This document shows, in pieces, positions 1 through 16,756 of a stretch of 20,000 bases of DNA (position 1 is the stretch's first letter; each line of letters opens with the position of its first letter). The DNA comes from Raillietiella orientalis (lineage: Eukaryota). Where the stretch lies: the NCBI GenBank assembly GCA_036172245.1, contig JAYWIR010000129.1, positions 61,850 to 81,849 of the forward strand, written 5' to 3'. The notes under the pieces are model-generated. The model was not told the DNA's origin, did not search any database, and saw nothing but the letters and a program-made list of their open reading frames with translations. Both the position numbers and the translations under genes were made by a program.

Positions 1-3000
1 GTCTTCCTGGACGCTGACCTGTGTTCACGCGTCGGCAAACGGGGGAGGGTTGTGTCGACGTTGTCGGACCATTCCCGGTTAATTTTCGAGATGCGGCCTC
101 GCGACAAAGGACCGCCATCCAGGGATTGGCGTCTGCCGGGGGACTGGACGCGACTCTCAGGTGCGAAGGAACACCTTCGCGAATACCTTAGAGGCGTCAC
201 GCTCCGGAATCTCCAGGACTGGGACCTATTCAAGGAATCGGTCCGCGAGTTCTGTGAGCAGTTCCCCCTGGATCGCCTGCCCTCCGGATTCGGCGAGGGT
301 GCTCGCAACCATCAGGCCTATTTACAGGCTCGTAGGTACGAGAGAACCCCTAATGTCCGTCGCCTGGCCGAGTACCGCGCCGGGGCCGAACGCCAAGCCT
401 GGCAATCCGGGTCGGCCAGCTTGCTGGACGACCAGGGCCGGGAATGTTCGTCCCCGGCGTCGGTACGGCATCTCGTGCGGAGTTTTTATTCCTCCCTTCA
501 CGCCAGGGAGCCCCCGGATCGAAACGTTTCTCGGCGCTTGCTTCCGGATGGCACCCCGGCAATAGGGGAGGAAGAGATGGAAAGCCTCGACGAGCCTTTT
601 ACCACCGGCGAAATTCTCGCCGGTATCAAAAGGCTCAAGAGGCGTAAAGCTTCAGGGGAAGACGGCTTGCCTGCGGAGTTCTTTCAGAGCTTCGCGGAAG
701 AGCTGGCACCCCTGCTGCTTAAGTTGATCAGGCTGATCCGAGACGAAGGCGATGTTACCGCCTCGTTTCGGTCAGCCAGAGTGAGGCTCCTTCCGAAAGG
801 GGGAGACCTCAGGAATTTAAAGAACTGGCGTCCGATCACAATCGTGAATACGGACGCCACGTTGATAGCAGGGCTATGGGCTTCGCGTCTGGGGCAGGTG
901 GCAGAATCCGTAATTAGCCCGGAGCAGACTTATGCTGTTCCCGGGCGAAGTATGGATGCCAACCTCTTCTTCGCAAGCACATGGGTGCACCTGCAGAGAA
1001 GAGAGAAGAAAGGGATAGGGAAAGTCGGCAACCCCACATGGGGGCCGCCAGCCGGGCTGGGAAGGGACCCCCGGGCGGGGAAGGGGGCCCTAGCGCTCGC
1101 AGTCGATCTCCACAAGGCGTTCGACTGTGTAGACCAGGAACTTCTCTTGGAGCTCCTGGGTCGCATGGGCTTTCCACCCACCCTGATCTTCTACCTGCGC
1201 TCTTGCTGGCGGAATGCGATAATTACCGTCTTTTTCAGCGGTCAAAAGGTGTATGGCGTGCCGGTGCGGCGGGGCATAAGGCAGGGAGATAGCCTCAGCC
1301 CCCTGCTCTTCAGCACCTACTTTGAGTTGGTGCTGAGAGCGTACAGGGTGACTTTGGCTCCATTGGCGAGCTCGTGCCCCGGCACGCCCGCCGTAGCAGC
1401 GTACGCCGACGATCTTCTGCTTTTGTTGCCGATGTCCACCCCGGCAAAGGCGGTCGGAGACTTCTTCGATCTGCTCATCCGCGGGACCGGACTGCAGGTT
1501 AACAGGGCGAAGTCGTCGGTTGTGCCAATAGGTGCGGCGTGGGCAGGGCAGCAGGACTGGGTCCGTCTGGGGATCCCCACGGCGAGGTGCTTCAAGTACC
1601 TTGGTGTGCCGTTGGGGGACTACTCCCCTGCGGAAGCGTGGTCCAGCTGCCTCCAAAAAGTCCAGACGGCGATCGGCCCGTTCCTGGAAGGCGAGTTTCA
1701 CTTGCCGGAACGGGCCGCGGTTTGGAACGCCTCCGCGGCCCCCATCCTCCGCCCCTTGCTTTTTGTTTGCCCCCCCACCGTGGAATCCAAGAAGAGGACG
1801 AAGGACCTCCTCCGTATCGCCCTTTGGGGCAAGGGGAGGCCCCGAGTCCCACTGAAGGACTTGTGCGCTCCGCGTCGGGACGGCGGTCTTGGCCTCCTGA
1901 CGCTGGAGCGCGTGAGAAGCAGCGGCGGTGGCGAACCCTCGCCATCGCAGCGAAGATGTGGTGCACCCCTTGGTGCACTCCAGCCCGCCTCCTGGCCAGC
2001 CGTGTGTCCTGGTGCGATGGACTCGCGTCTTTTCTTCTCAGCCGTGGCCGGAAGATGCGAAGATGCGGCCTACTGCTCGGGCGCATGGCAACATTGGCCA
2101 AGGAGAACAGCTGGATGGTTTGCTGCCCCGCCAACTCCCCCGCCTGGCTGGAGGAAAATATTGGAACGTGGGCAGGAATTAACAAGACAAGCCACGAGAC
2201 GTGGAATCGTCTCCGATGCAGCCCCTACGCCCGCTGCACGCTGCGGAATCTCCTGGAGAGTCCAGCAAGATGCACGTGGGCAGAGACGACCTGTCTAGCT
2301 ACGGCGCTGCCCTTCCTGAAGAGGGCACTTCACAGCAGACGGACGCCAAGGTGGCAAGTCTCCTGCTGCATCGAGGGACGCGAAAAGTTAATCAGCGGCT
2401 GGACAACAGGAGAACTGGCAGACGCCACGACCCCGAGCGTCCAGCCGCGAGAACTAAGAAGATGGGGCGAGCTGCTGGCCATCCCTATGGATGTGCTGAA
2501 GTGGCCCCCGCTTCTTCAGGAATCCAGGATCCTGCCTCTTAAGTGGAAAGAGTCGGCGTTGCTGTTGTTGCATTGCGGTTTACCCTGCAACGCACGCCGC
2601 TCTCACTGGACAAGAGGAGTTGTGGATCCTGCGTGTGTCAGGTGCGAAGAGCGGGAATCGCTCTTCCACCTTATTGTGGACTGTGCTGCCCTTCGTCCCC
2701 TTTGGGAACGGTTTGGGACGATCCTCGGTCTCCCAACGGGCAGTTCCCCTAGTGCCGTTCTTCGGCCCCTCTTCGTGAAGGACGCTTTGCAGCCAGCCGC
2801 AGCCCTTGCAGCCTTGTGCTGCGTCCGAGGCATCGTGGCGGCATGGAGCGACACCAACAAGGAAGGAGTGGGTCAACACGCGAGGGATGTCTTCCCATAT
2901 GCCCAACGCTTCTTGCGAAGAGCTGCCGGATGGCCCCAACTGGGGAATATAAGGACTGACCTCGAGGGCTTCGTTCGACGGATGGGCCCTCTCCACAGCG

Positions 3001-3008
3001 AGCAGTGA
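1..3008 (+). pseudogene. E1 ORF2 (end of APE, reverse transcriptase, C-terminal zinc motif), one frameshift near 1918
   Basis: ORF 52..2298 has LSDH, KASGEDG, NWRPITIVN, DLHKAFD, GIRQGDSLSPLLF, YADD, FKYLGV, RRDGGLGL. It continues in the frame of ORF 1539..3008 (CVRCEERESLFHLIVDC). gtgagaagcagc here vs gtgaaaaagcagc in E2 shows a 1-nt deletion. Confidence 0.92.
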
Positions 3009-3220
3009 TCCCTTCCCTGCCCTCCAACCTCTTTTTGTTTGTTTCTTTTTATTTTACTTTTTGTCTTATCCCCATCCCCCTTCGCTGTCGGGGAGTGCCA
3101 CGCCGGGCTGCGTCCCGGTGTCCCGACAGGTCCTGTGTTTAGGGCCGTGGTGGGGCCTTGTACCACGCATGTAAAGTTTAATAATAAACGCCCCGGGCGT
3201 ACCCGGGTGATAACGCCGAA
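3009..3220 (+). other. E1 3' UTR: pyrimidine/T-rich tract, four predicted hairpins, AATAAA, no poly(A)
   Basis: ctgtcggg(3085)/cccgacag(3122), cgtggt(3146)/accacg(3162), gttta(3176)/taaac(3185), cccggg-cgta-cccggg (3192-3207). Confidence 0.8.
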
Positions 3221-3229
3221 GCCCTTAGC

Positions 3230-3245
3230 GAGTGGACGTGTGTTT
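3230..3245 (+). promoter_or_regulatory. Conserved element 5'-end motif GAGTGGACGTGTGTTT (candidate internal promoter)
   Basis: GGAYGTG core recurs at 8911, 11288, 15455 and 16673, each at an element start; 86 nt before the ORF1 ATG. Confidence 0.6.
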
Positions 3246-3319
3246 CCTTCGCTCCCGAGTGAGTCGACAGGAAGCGGTTTTTTGTTGTGTTGTTTAGTGC
3301 GGAACATCGTTGGTGTCCG

Positions 3320-8681: not shown

Positions 8682-8893
8682 TCCCTTCCCTGCCCTCCAA
8701 CTTCTTTTTGTTTGTTTCTTTTTATTTTACTATTTGTCTTATCCCCATCCCCCTTCGCTGTCGGGGAGTGCCACGCCGGGCTGCTTCCCGGTGTCCCGAC
8801 AGGTCCTGTGTTTACGGCCGTGGTGGGGCCTTGTACCACGCATGTAAGGTTTATTAACAAACGCTCCGGGCGTACCCGGGTGATAACACCGAA
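8682..8893 (+). other. E2 3' UTR, near-identical to the E1 3' UTR
   Basis: Same hairpins at offset +5673; terminal hairpin tccggg-cgta-cccggg at 8865-8880; AACAAA in place of AATAAA. Confidence 0.8.
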
Positions 8894-10208
8894 TCCCCTT
8901 TGGGGAGAGAGGATGTGCTTTTCCTGCGCTCCGCCTGCGTGGCAAGGCGAGTGGTTTTCCCTTGAGTGGTTTGTGCATGCACATCGTCGGTGTCGGATGG
9001 CAGCGTTGCCAGAGGACAATGCGATGGAAGTAGGCGTGGGGGAGGCTTGTTCGCCCCCACAGCCCACTGGATCAGGGGCATCCGCCTTGGAATCGTCCCC
9101 GGCGACGCCGAGGTCATGGAGCGCCATGGTGGCTGCGACAAGCGTGGAAGCCATGGCCGAGATGGAAGCCTACAAACAAGCGGGGTATAAACCCTCGCTA
9201 GTCTACAAGGTAGGCAACCTTTTTGATGGGCGAACTGCACGCGCCTTTACGAAGGCGCTGCAGGACGCCAATATTCTCGAACAAGATCTTGACGGCCTCT
9301 CCGTCCTCAGCGGCGGGCAGCGGGTCGAGGTGGTATGCAAAGATATCACCTTGGCCCAACGCCTGATCACCGACCCGCTGATCGTTGATGGTCGGAAAAT
9401 CTTAACGGTGACGATGGACCGCTCGGTAGTGATCCATCTCACTTGGATCTCCAGTCGCATGACTAGGTCAGCGGTTGGAGATCAGTTGCGAGAGCACGCA
9501 GAAGTGCACGCGTTGTGGCCGAAGCCCACGATTTTCCAAGGCTACAATATCCTTTTAGGGGGTCAAGCTGCGGCGCGTATCACCGTAAACGAGGGTGGTG
9601 CGCTTCCCCACAAGCTGGAGGTCTGCCAAGAAGCGGTGGACCTCTGGAACGTGGGGAAACCCCAATTTTGTCGCTACTGCAATGCAGTAGGGCACCTACG
9701 AAAAAGGTGCCCGAAAATTGTGTGCCACCCATGCGGGGAAAAGGATCACGTTCGCGTGAGCCCCAAGCGCCCCACCCCGGTGCCCCCTGTCGCCAAAAAG
9801 GCGCAGGGAAAACGTGGAAAACTGGTAGAAAGACCAGTTCGCGAAAATGGCCGTTTCCAACTGCCAGCCTCCCTTCCTCCCGTACAGACGTCGGAGGAAA
9901 TAGCTCCCGTGGACGCGGGAATGGAGGAGGGTTGGCAGCTGGTTCAGGCCAGAAAAGAAAAAAAAAAGAAATTAATGCCAGAAGAAAAGTCGGAGAAGAG
10001 AACTGCCGGCAAGAAGAAAAAAGCCGCGCCGCTTTCAAAAAAAAAACAACTTCGCAAAGGCTCGGTGGCACTGGAACGCTCAGTCGTTCCGGCCGAGTCC
10101 GCACGCGGCAATGTTCGCGGAACAGCTGATGCGGACGCGATGAATACTCGCGTGGACGAGCCTATTCTATGTTTAGAGGGTGAGACGCGAGACTCGCGCG
10201 CCGACTGC

Positions 10209-10812: not shown

Positions 10813-11277
10813 ATACCTGGGCTCGCCAGTCGCCGTCGGATTATCGCGGCCTGTTAAGATGTCAACGGGCTGCGCGACGACGGCCACAGGCGAGATACGG
10901 CCGACACCCTGCGTGGGCTCGACCTGGCGCTGCTGCAGGGGATCCACGTGATCTGTGCGGCGGATGTCCAGGAAATCGAGACCATCGCGGGGGGTCGGTT
11001 GTGCTGGCAATGCGGTTGCCGCAACACCTGCGGGGTCGCGTTCTTCGTGAAGCCGGCCATCGACGCTGCCGTAAAGGGCGTGCGGTTTGATGACGACGGT
11101 CGGATCGGCCAGCTGTTTCTCAGCTGGTCCGACTCTATCGACCTAATCGTCACAAACGTGTATGGCCGCAGCGGCAAACAGAGGTACCGCGACCGCACCA
11201 GGTTGCTGGAATCCCTGAAGCGCGACTGGCTGGCGTATACCAATGTGCGAAAGGCTCACCTGATAGCAGGAGACTTT
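10813..11277 (+). pseudogene. E3 ORF2 N-terminal APE fragment
   Basis: C*DVNGL (TGG to TAA at 10855), LLQG, CGVAFFVKP, NVYG, AGDF. Confidence 0.88.
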
Positions 11278-11350
11278 GCGGACGTACGGACGTGTTTTTT
11301 TTCGCTCTCGTCTCCGTGCTTTCATCCGCTTCATCTTGGTGTCGTGAATT

Positions 11351-13281: not shown

Positions 13282-14997
13282 TGCGTGGAATCGCGTCTTC
13301 TCGTCGTCTGTCCGTAACGTTTCGGAACGTGAACGGACTTTAGAACGACGAGAAGAGGCGATTAGTCGCCAACGCCCTGCGCCCCTTCGACCTCACGCTC
13401 CTGCAGGAGATTCACGTAATCTCCGACGAGCCGGCAGCCGAAATCGAGGAGCGCGCAGGCGGAACGCTACATTGGCGATGCGGCGGCGCACACACGTGCG
13501 GCGTCGCGTTCCTCGTAAGAGGAAAAATGGCGGAAGCGGTGCGTAGTGTTCGTTTCGATGACGACGGACGGATAGGCCAACTTGTCATCAAGTGGTCCGA
13601 GTCCATCGATCTCGTCGTTACGAACGTCTACGCGCCGAGTGGCTCTCGCTACCTCGAAGAAAGAGTACCTTACTTCGGTGAGGTGCAGAGCCACTGGCTC
13701 AACAACTTTGGCTTCCAAGTGGCGCCTCTCGTCGCTGGGGACTTCAACGTCCGCTGCTCTCCGACGATTGGAGCCGCCCGAGGGAGCGCGCGCTGCACGT
13801 CGAGATGTGCCCGTCCGTGCACGCCGCCAACTTGATGGTCAGCTAACCTGGAATGGAAAGATCGCTTGATCACGTTTTCCTCGATGAAAACCTGCATTGG
13901 CGTGTGGGTAGGAGAGGAAGATTGTTGACTAGGCTTTCTGACCACCACAGGTTGGAGTTTGTGATCCTTTCGCCAGGCAGGGGGCCTTTGTGGCAAAGCT
14001 GGAGGATGCAGGCGGACTGGCTCAGCCAACCGAAGGCTGAGGAGCATCTACGTGGACACCTCCGAGGCTTTGCCATTCAAGAAATTGCGGACTGGGACGA
14101 TCTCAAAAGATCTGTTCGCGAGTTCTGCCGCCAATTCCCCTTGCACCGGCTTCCACGCAGTTTCGGAGAGAGCGTTGTTCACAGTAGAGACTTTCTGCAG
14201 GCCCGCACGTTTTCGAGACGCGCGGATGTCGCGCGTCTAGCGGAGTACAAGACGAGGGCCGAGGGCCAGGTCTGGCAGTCCGGAGCAGCATGCCTGTTGG
14301 ACGACAAGGGCCAGGAATGTTCGGCCCCAGCCGAAGTACGCCGCATTGTGAGACGCTACTACTCCTCGCTCTACGCGGAATCCCCGACGGAGGATATTCT
14401 TTCTGAGATACTCCTGTCTCAGGATGCTCGTGTTGTCGGCGAGGAGCAACGCTAACGTCTCAACGAGCCCTTCGCGGCGGATGAATTTTCGTCCGCCATC
14501 GCTGGGCTGAAGAGACGAAAGGCGCCAGGCGAGGATGGGCTCCCTGCAGAGTTTTATCAGTGCTTTGCAGTGGAGCTCATTCCCTTGATGCTGAGACTCG
14601 CCACGCTGATGAGGGAATCCGGGAATGTCCCGGATTGCTTCCGCTCAGCGAAGGTGCGTCTCCTGCCGAAAGGCGGAGACTTGCGTCAACTTAACAACTG
14701 GCGTCCGATCACCTTGGTGAACTCGGACGTCAAGTTGTTTTCCAAGCTGTGGGTCGCGCGGTTAGGAAGTATCTCGGAATCTGTGGTGAGCCCGGAACAA
14801 ACCTACGCGGTTCCGGGACGATCCATGGAGGCGAACATCCTTTTCGCGCGTACATGGATGCAGCTGCAGGAAGTTGTGGCGCAGCAAACCAGGCTGCTGA
14901 GAAAGTCACTGCCGCAGGCAAGAAGAACAGGCGCCGATGGCAGGAGGGAACGCCAGGTGCCTTGGCGGTCGCGGTCGATCTTCACAAGGCGTTCGAT
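13281..14997 (+). pseudogene. E4 ORF2 (APE + partial RT), degenerate
   Basis: ATG 13281 MRGIASSRRLSVTFRNVNGL*, LLQE, NVYAP, AGDFN, SLDH, LSDH, KAPGEDG, NWRPITLVN, DLHKAFD. Confidence 0.88.
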
Positions 14998-15447
14998 TTT
15001 CACCCGGATTTCTCCGAGTCGTTTATTAAAAAAATAAACTTCGTAAACAAATTATTGATGGCTGTGGCAATGTTCCAGCCAGAAGCTAACAACCACGGCG
15101 CCTGCCAATTCACCGGTTTCTAGACCGGTACGGTCCACCAAGGCAGCAGGGGAAAGGGGAAAAACAAAAAAAATAAACGAAAAAAAACAAAACAAAGGGT
15201 GGGAGGGAACAAGAAGGGATCACTGTTGCTGCTGGGGCCGCATCATTCCTCTCAGGATGCTGGCAAGCTCTTGTTTTTTGTGAACATCCAGGTGGGGCCA
15301 TCGCGACGCCCTCCTCAGGAATTCGGAGGCGCACTGGATGGCTTTCTGATCGGTAGGTCCTCCCGTCGCCGTGCTCCAGGCGGCGACGATCCCACGAAGG
15401 CAGCACAAGGCTGCTATCGAAGACGCTGGCTTGCGACGGCGCTCTTG
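14998..15447 (-). mobile_element. X: inverted 3'-terminal fragment of a related element (ORF2 C-terminus + 3' UTR)
   Basis: Minus strand encodes PASSIAALCCLRGIVAAWS...FLRRASRWPHL...QQ*, homologous to the E1/E2 ORF2 end, followed by TGATCCCTTC, a T-tract, hairpins and aataaacgactcggagaaatccgggtgaaa. Confidence 0.9.
15220..15445 (-). pseudogene. ORF2 C-terminal ~70 codons of fragment X
   Basis: 3' part of track ORF 15220..15555; CCLRGIVAAWS motif. Confidence 0.85.
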
Positions 15448-15448
15448 A

Positions 15449-16664
15449 GAGGGTGGACGTGCTTTTGAGGTGCTCTGCGTTTTTCTCGCGAGTGTTTTCC
15501 GAGTTTTCAGGTTTGAGCGGTTGTTCCTGGGCAGGGATGCCCGAGGACGCCGCAAAGACGGCGGAGGGGGGCGAGCGAGCCTCGTCCCCCCAGCCCATGG
15601 ATGTGGGGGCCATCTCCCCCACGGAATCGTCCCCCGCCCCGGCGAGGGCTTGGAGCGCGGTGGTGGCGGCGCCTGCGCCGCCCCTCGCAGAGGAACAGCG
15701 GGCTTACATGGCCGACGGGTATAACCCGGCCTTGTTATACAAGGTAGGTGGCCTGTACTCTTCCGCGTTATTACGGTCTTTCGCGGCCGAGTTCAAGAAA
15801 TTAAAAGTCCCGGAGTACGAAGTCCTCGGACTTTCGGTTAGGAGTGGCGGGCAGCTGGTCGAGCTGAACTGCAAGTCTGCAGGGATGGCTCAGCAGCTGT
15901 TCCGCCTGCCGGTGACCGTGAACGGTCGAAGAATCTTCCCGTTCACGGCGGACAACTCCATCGTTGTCCACCTCACCGGTATTACCATGAGAATGGCTAA
16001 GACTGCCGTTCGCGAGAGTTTGGAGAAGTTCGGGACGGTCCACGCGTTGTGGGCAAAACCCAATGTACTGGGTTACACCAGGGCATTTAGTGGTTACGCC
16101 GCTGCCCGCGTGATCGTCCGAGCCGAGGGTGGGCTACCCCACAGACTGCAGTTCGGGGAGGAGGAGATCGACCTGTGGTATGTGGGGAAACCCGTATACT
16201 GCGGCTTTTGCCAGGTGTCGGGGCATTTAAAAAAGAAATGCCCCAACATCGTGTGCTTGGGCTGTGGGGAGAAGGGGCACATCAGGCGGATGTGCCCCAA
16301 CCGAAAAAGGTCCGTTCCGTCAGGCGCGAGGAAGGAAGAGACGCCGAAGGAAAAGGACCGAAGCCAACAACTGGCAGAACCCCGCCCTGCCGACCAACCC
16401 GCTACTCAGGCATCCACCAGCGAACAACCAGCTGGAGAAAGCGCCGAGAACGAGGAAGGTTGGCAAAAGGTAGAAAGGAAGAAGCCCCAGAAGAAGGAGG
16501 CAAAAAAGATAAACAAGGCGGTGCCGAAAAAGCAGAAACCGGTCGTCCGCGCTTGTACGGTGAAGATCGAACGCGTCTCGATCGCCAGAGCCGTAAAGAA
16601 AGTAACGGTAAAGGCGATCGATACCGTCGATCCTGAGCCGGTCGTGCCTGCAGTGACGTCACCG
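15449..16664 (+). mobile_element. E5: 5' part of a family C element, interrupted in ORF1 by E6
   Basis: gagggtggacgtgctttt start; ends at gcagtgacgtcaccg, whose homologue in E6 (18027-18041) continues further. Confidence 0.88.
15537..16664 (+). CDS. E5 ORF1, gag-like zinc-knuckle protein, open but 3'-truncated
   Basis: MPEDAAK..., CGFCQVSGHLKKKC and CLGCGEKGHIRRMC intact. Confidence 0.85.
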
Positions 16665-16756
16665 CGGTGAGTGGACGTGTTTTTTCGGTGCTCCGGAAAA
16701 TCGTCTGTTTTTGCTGGTGTTTGTGGGTTTTTCAGCGCGGTTGTTCCTGGGCAGAA

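Follow-up and report, generated by a model that had tools for sequence, protein, structure and literature searches.

The window, a stretch of 20,000 nucleotides from the genome of Raillietiella orientalis, holds a nest of LINEs with an ORF1 that carries a zinc knuckle and an ORF2 comprising an APE endonuclease, a reverse transcriptase (RT) and a C-terminal zinc finger; the Pfam families Exo_endo_phos, RVT_1 and zf-CCHC matched these reading frames. On the forward strand, positions 1–3008 encode the 3´ part of ORF2 of an element referred to as E1, including the RT (RVT_1, E 1.3e-22) and the C-terminal zinc-finger region (zf-RVT, E 4e-4, below the cut-off). The frame changes once, near 1.9 kb, and closes with a TGA stop at 3006–3008. 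The 3´ UTR has a C-rich start followed by a U-rich tract (3009–3084, forward strand), and a similar tract is found in the printed family representatives. E2, of the same family, has its 3´ UTR at 8682–8886 of the forward strand, with AATAAA changed to AACAAA. A third element, X, lies on the reverse strand with its 3´ UTR at 14997–15219 (H1 at 15146–15102, H2 at 15081–15059, H3 at 15039–15021, H4 at 15021–15001 and the tail at 15000–14997). A preliminary description had proposed that the UTRs form four hairpins, H1–H4, and the motifs it named are present in E1, E2 and X. Identity is 197/205 (96%) between the UTRs of E1 and E2 and 139/228 (61%) between those of E1 and X. Because E1 and E2 are near-identical, the window contains only two independent lineages, that is, one real comparison.

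When the entire UTR was folded, the energies were no better than those of shuffled sequences (z −1.08 for E1 and −0.43 for X). Scores for the individual modules ranged from z −0.7 to −1.64, against a mean z of −0.63 in control windows, and were discarded as evidence since the controls also deviated slightly. With whole-UTR folding uninformative and one real comparison at hand, the case therefore rests on further families from the genome. In the 210-Mb assembly, DNA queries from E1 and from X each found more than 1,100 candidate places, and the feature is the tail of a radiation of L1-like LINEs that numbers more than 1,000 copies. An intact ORF2 of 1,201 amino acids (locus L131) has human L1 ORF2p as its best match among solved structures in the PDB (E 7e-45; R2, E 1e-13). 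Two protein matches to ORF2 are close, at 60–61% identity, and the remaining proteins are at 25–38%. On such similarity matches the group is called L1-like, a term that here covers both an L1 and a Tx1 affiliation. From approximately 0.99 Mb of loci, 193 distinct ends were collected by a fuzzy match to the terminal motif (2 matches in the reversed-sequence control). Those with enough upstream sequence formed 77 clusters, of which 4 to 8, depending on the test, were removed as false or interrupted. Most clusters are single decayed copies and eight have at least three members; the median identity of the ORF2 C-terminus is 33% among 51 representatives. The sample is biased in that the E1 and X queries carried 20 and 10 nt of flank, respectively, and in that 10-kb stretches were chosen from array-rich contigs.

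H1 spans 3085–3129 of the forward strand (−26.2 kcal/mol, z −2.64), with an outer stem, 3085–3092 paired with 3122–3129, enclosing an inner hairpin at 3102–3119. The inner hairpin has a 6-bp stem and the hexaloop CUGCGU (3108–3113), closed by a covarying pair, 3107–3114. H1 was located by a sequence-only anchor in which the closing pair was given zero weight. It was found in 56 of the 77 clusters, the other 21 being excluded for low score or distance. The loop consensus is C-U-G-C-G-N, with each of the first five positions kept in 48–53 of the 56, and the closing pair is U-A in 15, C-G in 15, G-C in 9, A-U in 1, a wobble in 6 and unpaired in 10. Genome-wide, the H1 pattern had 1,253 matches (control 2). 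Among the first 100 of these the closing pair is 53 times U-A, 26 times C-G, 15 times G-C and twice U.G, with 4 mismatches; it is thus formed in 96/100, where approximately 58 are expected from the margins (a hand count, and the copies are not independent). A sequence-only alignment of 29 rows, picked from lineages having an outer stem, shows pairing in 85.7% of cells and 31 double changes, compared to 12 in shuffles. The inner stem is paired in 91% of cells with double changes at 4/6 pairs, and the outer stem in 82% with changes that are chiefly one-sided. A null model based on an ORF2 tree of 49 tips places the closing pair at the top of 300 pairs, with a two-set E of 0.005 (0.0051) and an unrestricted all-pairs E of 0.20–0.26; the remaining five inner-stem pairs are without significant covariation in the same test. 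G.U outnumbers A.C in H1 (38 vs 18 and 27 vs 11). RNAalifold, which had been suggested as a check, retained only 4 pairs, all in the inner stem. H1 of the preliminary description, with its inner ccgg stem and its outer stem (ctgtc/gacag versus ctgcc/ggcag), is confirmed. The outer pair said to change from U-A to C-G is CG in 20, UA in 2 and UG in 2 of the 29 rows, all three states occurring within the E clade.

H2 is the best-covarying hairpin of the tail. In the conserved register, 3150–3156 pairs with 3160–3166 around a 3-nt loop (3150–3166, forward strand), with one G.A mismatch in the E clade. The anchor was a GGRAC/GTYCC core downstream of H1, and four outer positions lie outside it. These are paired in 145/232 cells (58 of 69 representatives used), compared to 88 ± 7 after arm swapping and 72–92 when the arms were slid. 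In 25 rows with a 3-nt loop, from which some close E-clade relatives were omitted, two pairs have 12 double changes each and four or five pair types. Restricted to the 19 rows that are also represented in the tree, these pairs gave two-set E values of 0.0013 and 0.0044 and unrestricted values of 0.043 and 0.14. By parsimony they rest on approximately 1–2 events each, and covarying pairs in general on approximately 1–4 double-change events. The ratio of G.U to A.C (21 vs 11) is not significant. The hairpin as such had been correctly recognised, but in other registers: the pairing gtggt/accac is shifted by 3 nt relative to the conserved one in E1, and X has TGGCTG/CAGCCA rather than gtggt/gccac, so both earlier registers were rejected. 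An E-clade H-type pseudoknot in which GGCC at 3143–3146 pairs with 3154–3157, crossing H2, is formally possible and is not claimed here. Within 3143–3166, the 21 representatives inspected had zero compensatory changes for it, and at least five (F36, F38, F43, F62 and F74) weaken or break the pairing.

The third hairpin, proposed as gttta/taaac overlapping AATAAA (3176–3189, forward strand), folds at 0 kcal/mol in E1, and E2 carries AACAAA. A stem of at least 6 bp is formed in 19/76 representatives, mainly of X-like lineages, against approximately 5 on average in shuffles. H3 is clade-restricted and weak, real only in some lineages other than E1, and was rejected as a general element because it fails to fold in E1 and is found in a minority of representatives. 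AATAAA itself (3183–3188, forward strand) is nearly invariant, each position being kept in 69–72 of 72 representatives across families. The terminal hairpin H4 (3189–3209, forward strand; core CCCGGG/CCCGGG at 3192–3207) is marked by its fold, by conservation and by 1,280 exact motif copies in the genome against 0 in the control. Its core, CCCGG/CCGGG, is nearly invariant and the loop takes more than 20 forms. In the predicted folds the stem is extended by C-G and G.U pairs around one bulged base, which is C in 59 representatives, U in 11 and A in 2. Double changes number 1 among 72 representatives × 5 pairs, and two singletons were counted by hand among 100 listed genome matches. The conservation of H4 is thus borne out and compensatory change almost absent; the pattern would fit a stem recognised by sequence and shape, invariant pairs being no proof of pairing. 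Searched for in metagenomes, the H4 motif was matched once, in a sequence without LINE similarity.

The elements end 4 nt after H4 without an A tail. In E1 the true 3´ end is the NNAA tail at 3210–3213 (forward strand), as identified by junction analysis, and the following 11 nt, up to the 5´ end of E2 (3214–3224, forward strand), are a target-site duplication that repeats the antisense target in ORF2 close to codon 307. The right edge at 3220 given in the preliminary description had therefore to be moved, as its last 7 nt belong to the duplication. The 11-mer or a close variant, with antisense ORF2 before it, also occurs at the 5´ junctions of the full-length copies L048, L095, L094, L102 and L104. 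NNAA follows 1,194 of the 1,280 exact terminal motifs, a pattern that excludes the E and X variants, and five or more A's follow 3 of them. Among the fetched ends, the last A is at +4 in 122/184, including all 39 E1-family and all 29 X-family copies, and at +5 in 50/184. In the +5 families F04, F05 and F06 the fifth base belongs to the target, since it is present at the 5´ junction too. Seventeen duplications of 10–16 bp were found around inserts of 78–5,945 nt, so that target-site duplication and 5´ truncation are both present, as in APE-type LINEs; one further candidate was removed as a chance match inside ORF2. Duplication and tail share no A in 10/17, one in 5/17 and two in 2/17. Relaxed poly(A)-primed retrotransposition of the mammalian L1 type was rejected on the counts of long A runs (3/1,280) and of duplications sharing no A (10/17).

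Several observations concern short copies. In one family on contig C1, 3/11 copies (L167, L169 and L175) are inserts of 196–222 nt, almost purely 3´ UTR, with duplications of their own, and point either to a favoured site of truncation or to a non-autonomous element in the making. L107 and L163 are tail-only pieces with H1, H2 and H4 and without an ORF, directly behind another element's 3´ end. A SINE sharing the tail, which had been suggested as a search target, was not found among 182 ends examined (<0.5% of the genome). An ORF2 C-terminus lies upstream of 172 of these ends; the remaining 10 resemble short truncation products or ends that have diverged, and a tRNA head is absent from them.

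Taken together, two hairpins covary (H1 and H2), one is invariant (H4) and one is weak (H3), so that four hairpins with compensatory changes was an overstatement; in the larger set, tree-aware tests recovered covariation in H1 and H2. The covariation of H1 and H2, the G.U excess in H1 and the fixed, tail-less end support the view that the tail is a conserved sense-strand, cis-acting RNA structure, as the comparison of sequences suggests. The epithet "undescribed" applies to its sequence: a covariance-model search of 2990–3240 against Rfam found nothing up to E 10, one of the whole window found one unrelated chance match only, and the literature searched (with Repbase and Dfam outside its scope) yielded no recognisable description of this tail. 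It does not apply to its kind, as 3´ hairpins with compensatory changes are reported from the L1 clade (PMC3472496).

Our favoured reading, to which we assign a probability of approximately 60%, is that the UTR acts as a stringent-type template-recognition element of the L1-like radiation. It is supported because H1 and H2 covary, AATAAA and H4 are kept, and the end is fixed without an A tail. The RNA would be processed via AATAAA, approximately 25 nt upstream of the end, and the folded tail would be bound by ORF2p through the H1 loop sequence and/or the H4 stem, by analogy with ZfL2. H4 could then serve as a ruler by which the nicked target 3´-OH comes to lie on the template 6 nt beyond the core stem, such that poly(A), if any, is left uncopied and A:T pairing with the primer is unnecessary. 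Several results speak against template recognition. The best H1 pair has an unrestricted E of 0.20–0.26 and H4, the proposed ruler, is without covariation; in addition, whole-UTR energies are unremarkable, RNAalifold supports only the 4 H1 pairs, and no partner SINE was found in the 182 ends.

The same conserved parts could act in 3´-end formation instead, with H4 and the AATAAA spacing fixing cleavage, H3 gating AATAAA in some lineages and RT starting at the first A's of the tail. AATAAA is indeed conserved as strongly as H4, lies at a fixed distance from the end, and can pair upstream in the 19/76 representatives mentioned for H3. We nevertheless regard this as unlikely: it leaves the conserved H1 loop, 65–150 nt upstream, unexplained, and does not account for poly(A)-primed RT copying almost exactly two A's at targets that are mostly without a T run.

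The insertion sites bear on the remaining explanations. Of 184 ends, 107 run into a LINE ORF, 37 into another element's head and 40 elsewhere. The recurrent site of the E clade is ORF2 codon 307 (34 copies) and that of the X clade codon 582–583 (22 copies), both in antisense; other lineages recur at codons 66, 74–75, 104, 165, 281, 364, 498 and 1080. X itself interrupts, in antisense, the RT motif AVDLHKAFD of its host element (14971–14996, forward strand; codon 582–583 of the reference ORF2). Each lineage targets a codon-exact position of its own within the ORF2 of relatives, with ten recurrent sites and mostly in antisense, as seen in the window at 3214–3224, 11260–11280 and 14971–14996 and in loci L001–L149; this targeting is probably a greater surprise than the hairpins. 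The short target sequence between head-to-tail neighbours also stands in front of full-length copies, and the head-to-tail arrays are therefore best read as repeated insertion into a regenerated duplication, E1 before E2 being one case. The dispersed copies L157 and L184, of different families, have a common non-LINE sequence downstream, which suggests another repeat serving as target. An element-encoded guide after the tail was ruled out as a fixed DNA feature, as the junction bases track the target variant (L069, L070 and L087).

Read-through of the RNA into the downstream target duplication, which would anneal to the nicked strand with the hairpins in a supporting part, is familiar from R1-type elements. 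Cleavage 10–30 nt after AATAAA, the textbook range, could leave several duplication bases on the RNA, and the off-site insertions L060, L154 and L145 retain the first 4–6 bases of the usual target. Endonuclease specificity alone predicts the same pattern, however, and the covariation of H1 and H2 is left without a cause, so that we hold read-through to be quite improbable. Least probable, and very unlikely in our estimate, is selection of the hairpins for RNA stability, export or ORF1p packaging, with TTTATT of H3 perhaps acting as an antisense poly(A) signal that stops host-LINE transcripts. The mapped ORF2 insertions are mostly antisense, and the H3 arm TTTATT of X reads as AATAAA on the host strand at 15033–15038, shortly inside the insert, where host transcripts could end. 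Yet TTTATT arises by chance in U-rich tracts, and the fixed distance from H4 to the junction is unexplained. 3´-end processing, read-through annealing and RNA stability are not mutually exclusive.

Under template recognition, target choice would reside in the endonuclease, where we place it because the sequence past the tail follows the target. One tentative extension, which we think somewhat unlikely to hold as a whole, is that the tail is a portable module of approximately 130 nt. It would let ORF2p begin reverse transcription at a point measured from H4, with no need for primer and template to pair, and would thereby have uncoupled the RNA end from the target. Endonucleases could then have diversified to ten or more codon-exact targets in the ORF2 of relatives while all lineages kept the tail, maybe sharing it in trans.

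L2-clade tails end in short tandem repeats, whereas the tail described here ends in four unrepeated bases. Those of UnaL2, ZfL2-1 and ZfL2-2 are described as having a terminal stem-loop of conserved stem, variable loop and bulge (PMC4176376, PMC1636434), which is also the fold predicted for H4. The ORF2 protein of ZfL2 is reported to bind the 3´ stem-loop, its stem in a general and its loop in a specific manner (PMC4176376), and the bulged stem of UnaL2 to be required (PMC1636434). These elements belong to another clade, and their function was shown by assay (PMC4176376, PMC1636434). As in stringent LINEs, a 3´ stem-loop is kept by compensatory change, here in H1 and H2; by this analogy the tail would work like theirs. 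From monocots, an L1-clade hairpin whose stem changes are compensatory has been reported (Ohshima 2012, PMC3472496), and the same source counts 9/233 flowering-plant and 5/15 green-algal L1 families without a 3´ repeat. Maize LINE1-1_ZM (monocot group 1a) and Chlamydomonas L1-1_CR are likewise L1-like with a conserved 3´ end, and in the monocot group, as here, the stem varies with compensatory changes and the loop bases are conserved (PMC3472496). As described there, these have one hairpin in approximately 45–80 nt, a stretch also found in SINEs, and L1-1_CR has a poly(A) end. The tail here, compared by description, has three supported or conserved hairpins over approximately 130 nt, is without poly(A), and had no partner SINE in our search. 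Stem-loops at the 3´ end have been argued for even in human L1 (PMC5135761).

Nesting and site specificity also have parallels. L1-1_CR, marked as stringent in PMC3472496, is the nested ZeppL of Chlamydomonas (ZeppL-1_cRei; PMC8226300), and Zepp and ZeppL-1_cRei are described as L1-type LINEs that likewise insert into existing copies to form nested clusters (PMC3446292, PMC8226300). A single centromeric cluster on each chromosome is a defining trait of Zepp/ZeppL. The present radiation differs in having many lineages, each with its own codon-exact site, and in that copies are also dispersed along large contigs. In the Tx1 clade, Tx1, Tx1-Mar and Keno are also APE-type elements with sequence-specific targets, some inside other transposons; the targets reported are DNA transposons, LTR elements, snRNA genes and microsatellites (PMC4494074), compared to ORF2 of sister LINEs here. 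SART1Bm of the R1 clade is also a site-specific APE LINE with an accurate RT start at the UTR end, but is reported to end in poly(A) and to need a long A tail for accuracy, whereas the genomic copies here are without one (PMC7265360).

The principle is thus known from other LINEs, and the R. orientalis tail is an unusually well-supported multi-hairpin version of it. Stringent recognition in the L1 group has so far rested on few sequence-only examples. The radiation offers dozens of natural tail variants, a base-exact junction without a tail and many target specificities, a test set for how, in the absence of poly(A), an L1-like ORF2p may choose its template and where to start. Should the ruler model be true, a short tail with interchangeable endonucleases would be of interest for the design of tools for site-specific insertion; should it prove wrong, one more LINE tail has been well documented.

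In every lineage, full-length elements begin with a short variable leader followed by a common GGACGTG and T-rich motif (66 heads; in the window at 3225–3260, 8898–8930, 11278–11310, 15450–15480 and 16660–16690), which is likely an internal promoter or start motif. ORF2 carries, at 990–1080 of the window, a variable, basic, Gly/Pro-rich insertion directly before the RT motif DLHKAFD, where the alignment to human L1 shows a gap. The UTR is longer in F05 and F06 (L151, L097 and relatives; approximately 320–340 nt), the U-tract being preceded by an additional block in which a further hairpin may form. Finally, at L167/L168 (G000:C1:2364900-2365250), a UTR-only copy interrupts, in antisense, the 3´ UTR of a different family between its H1 and H2.
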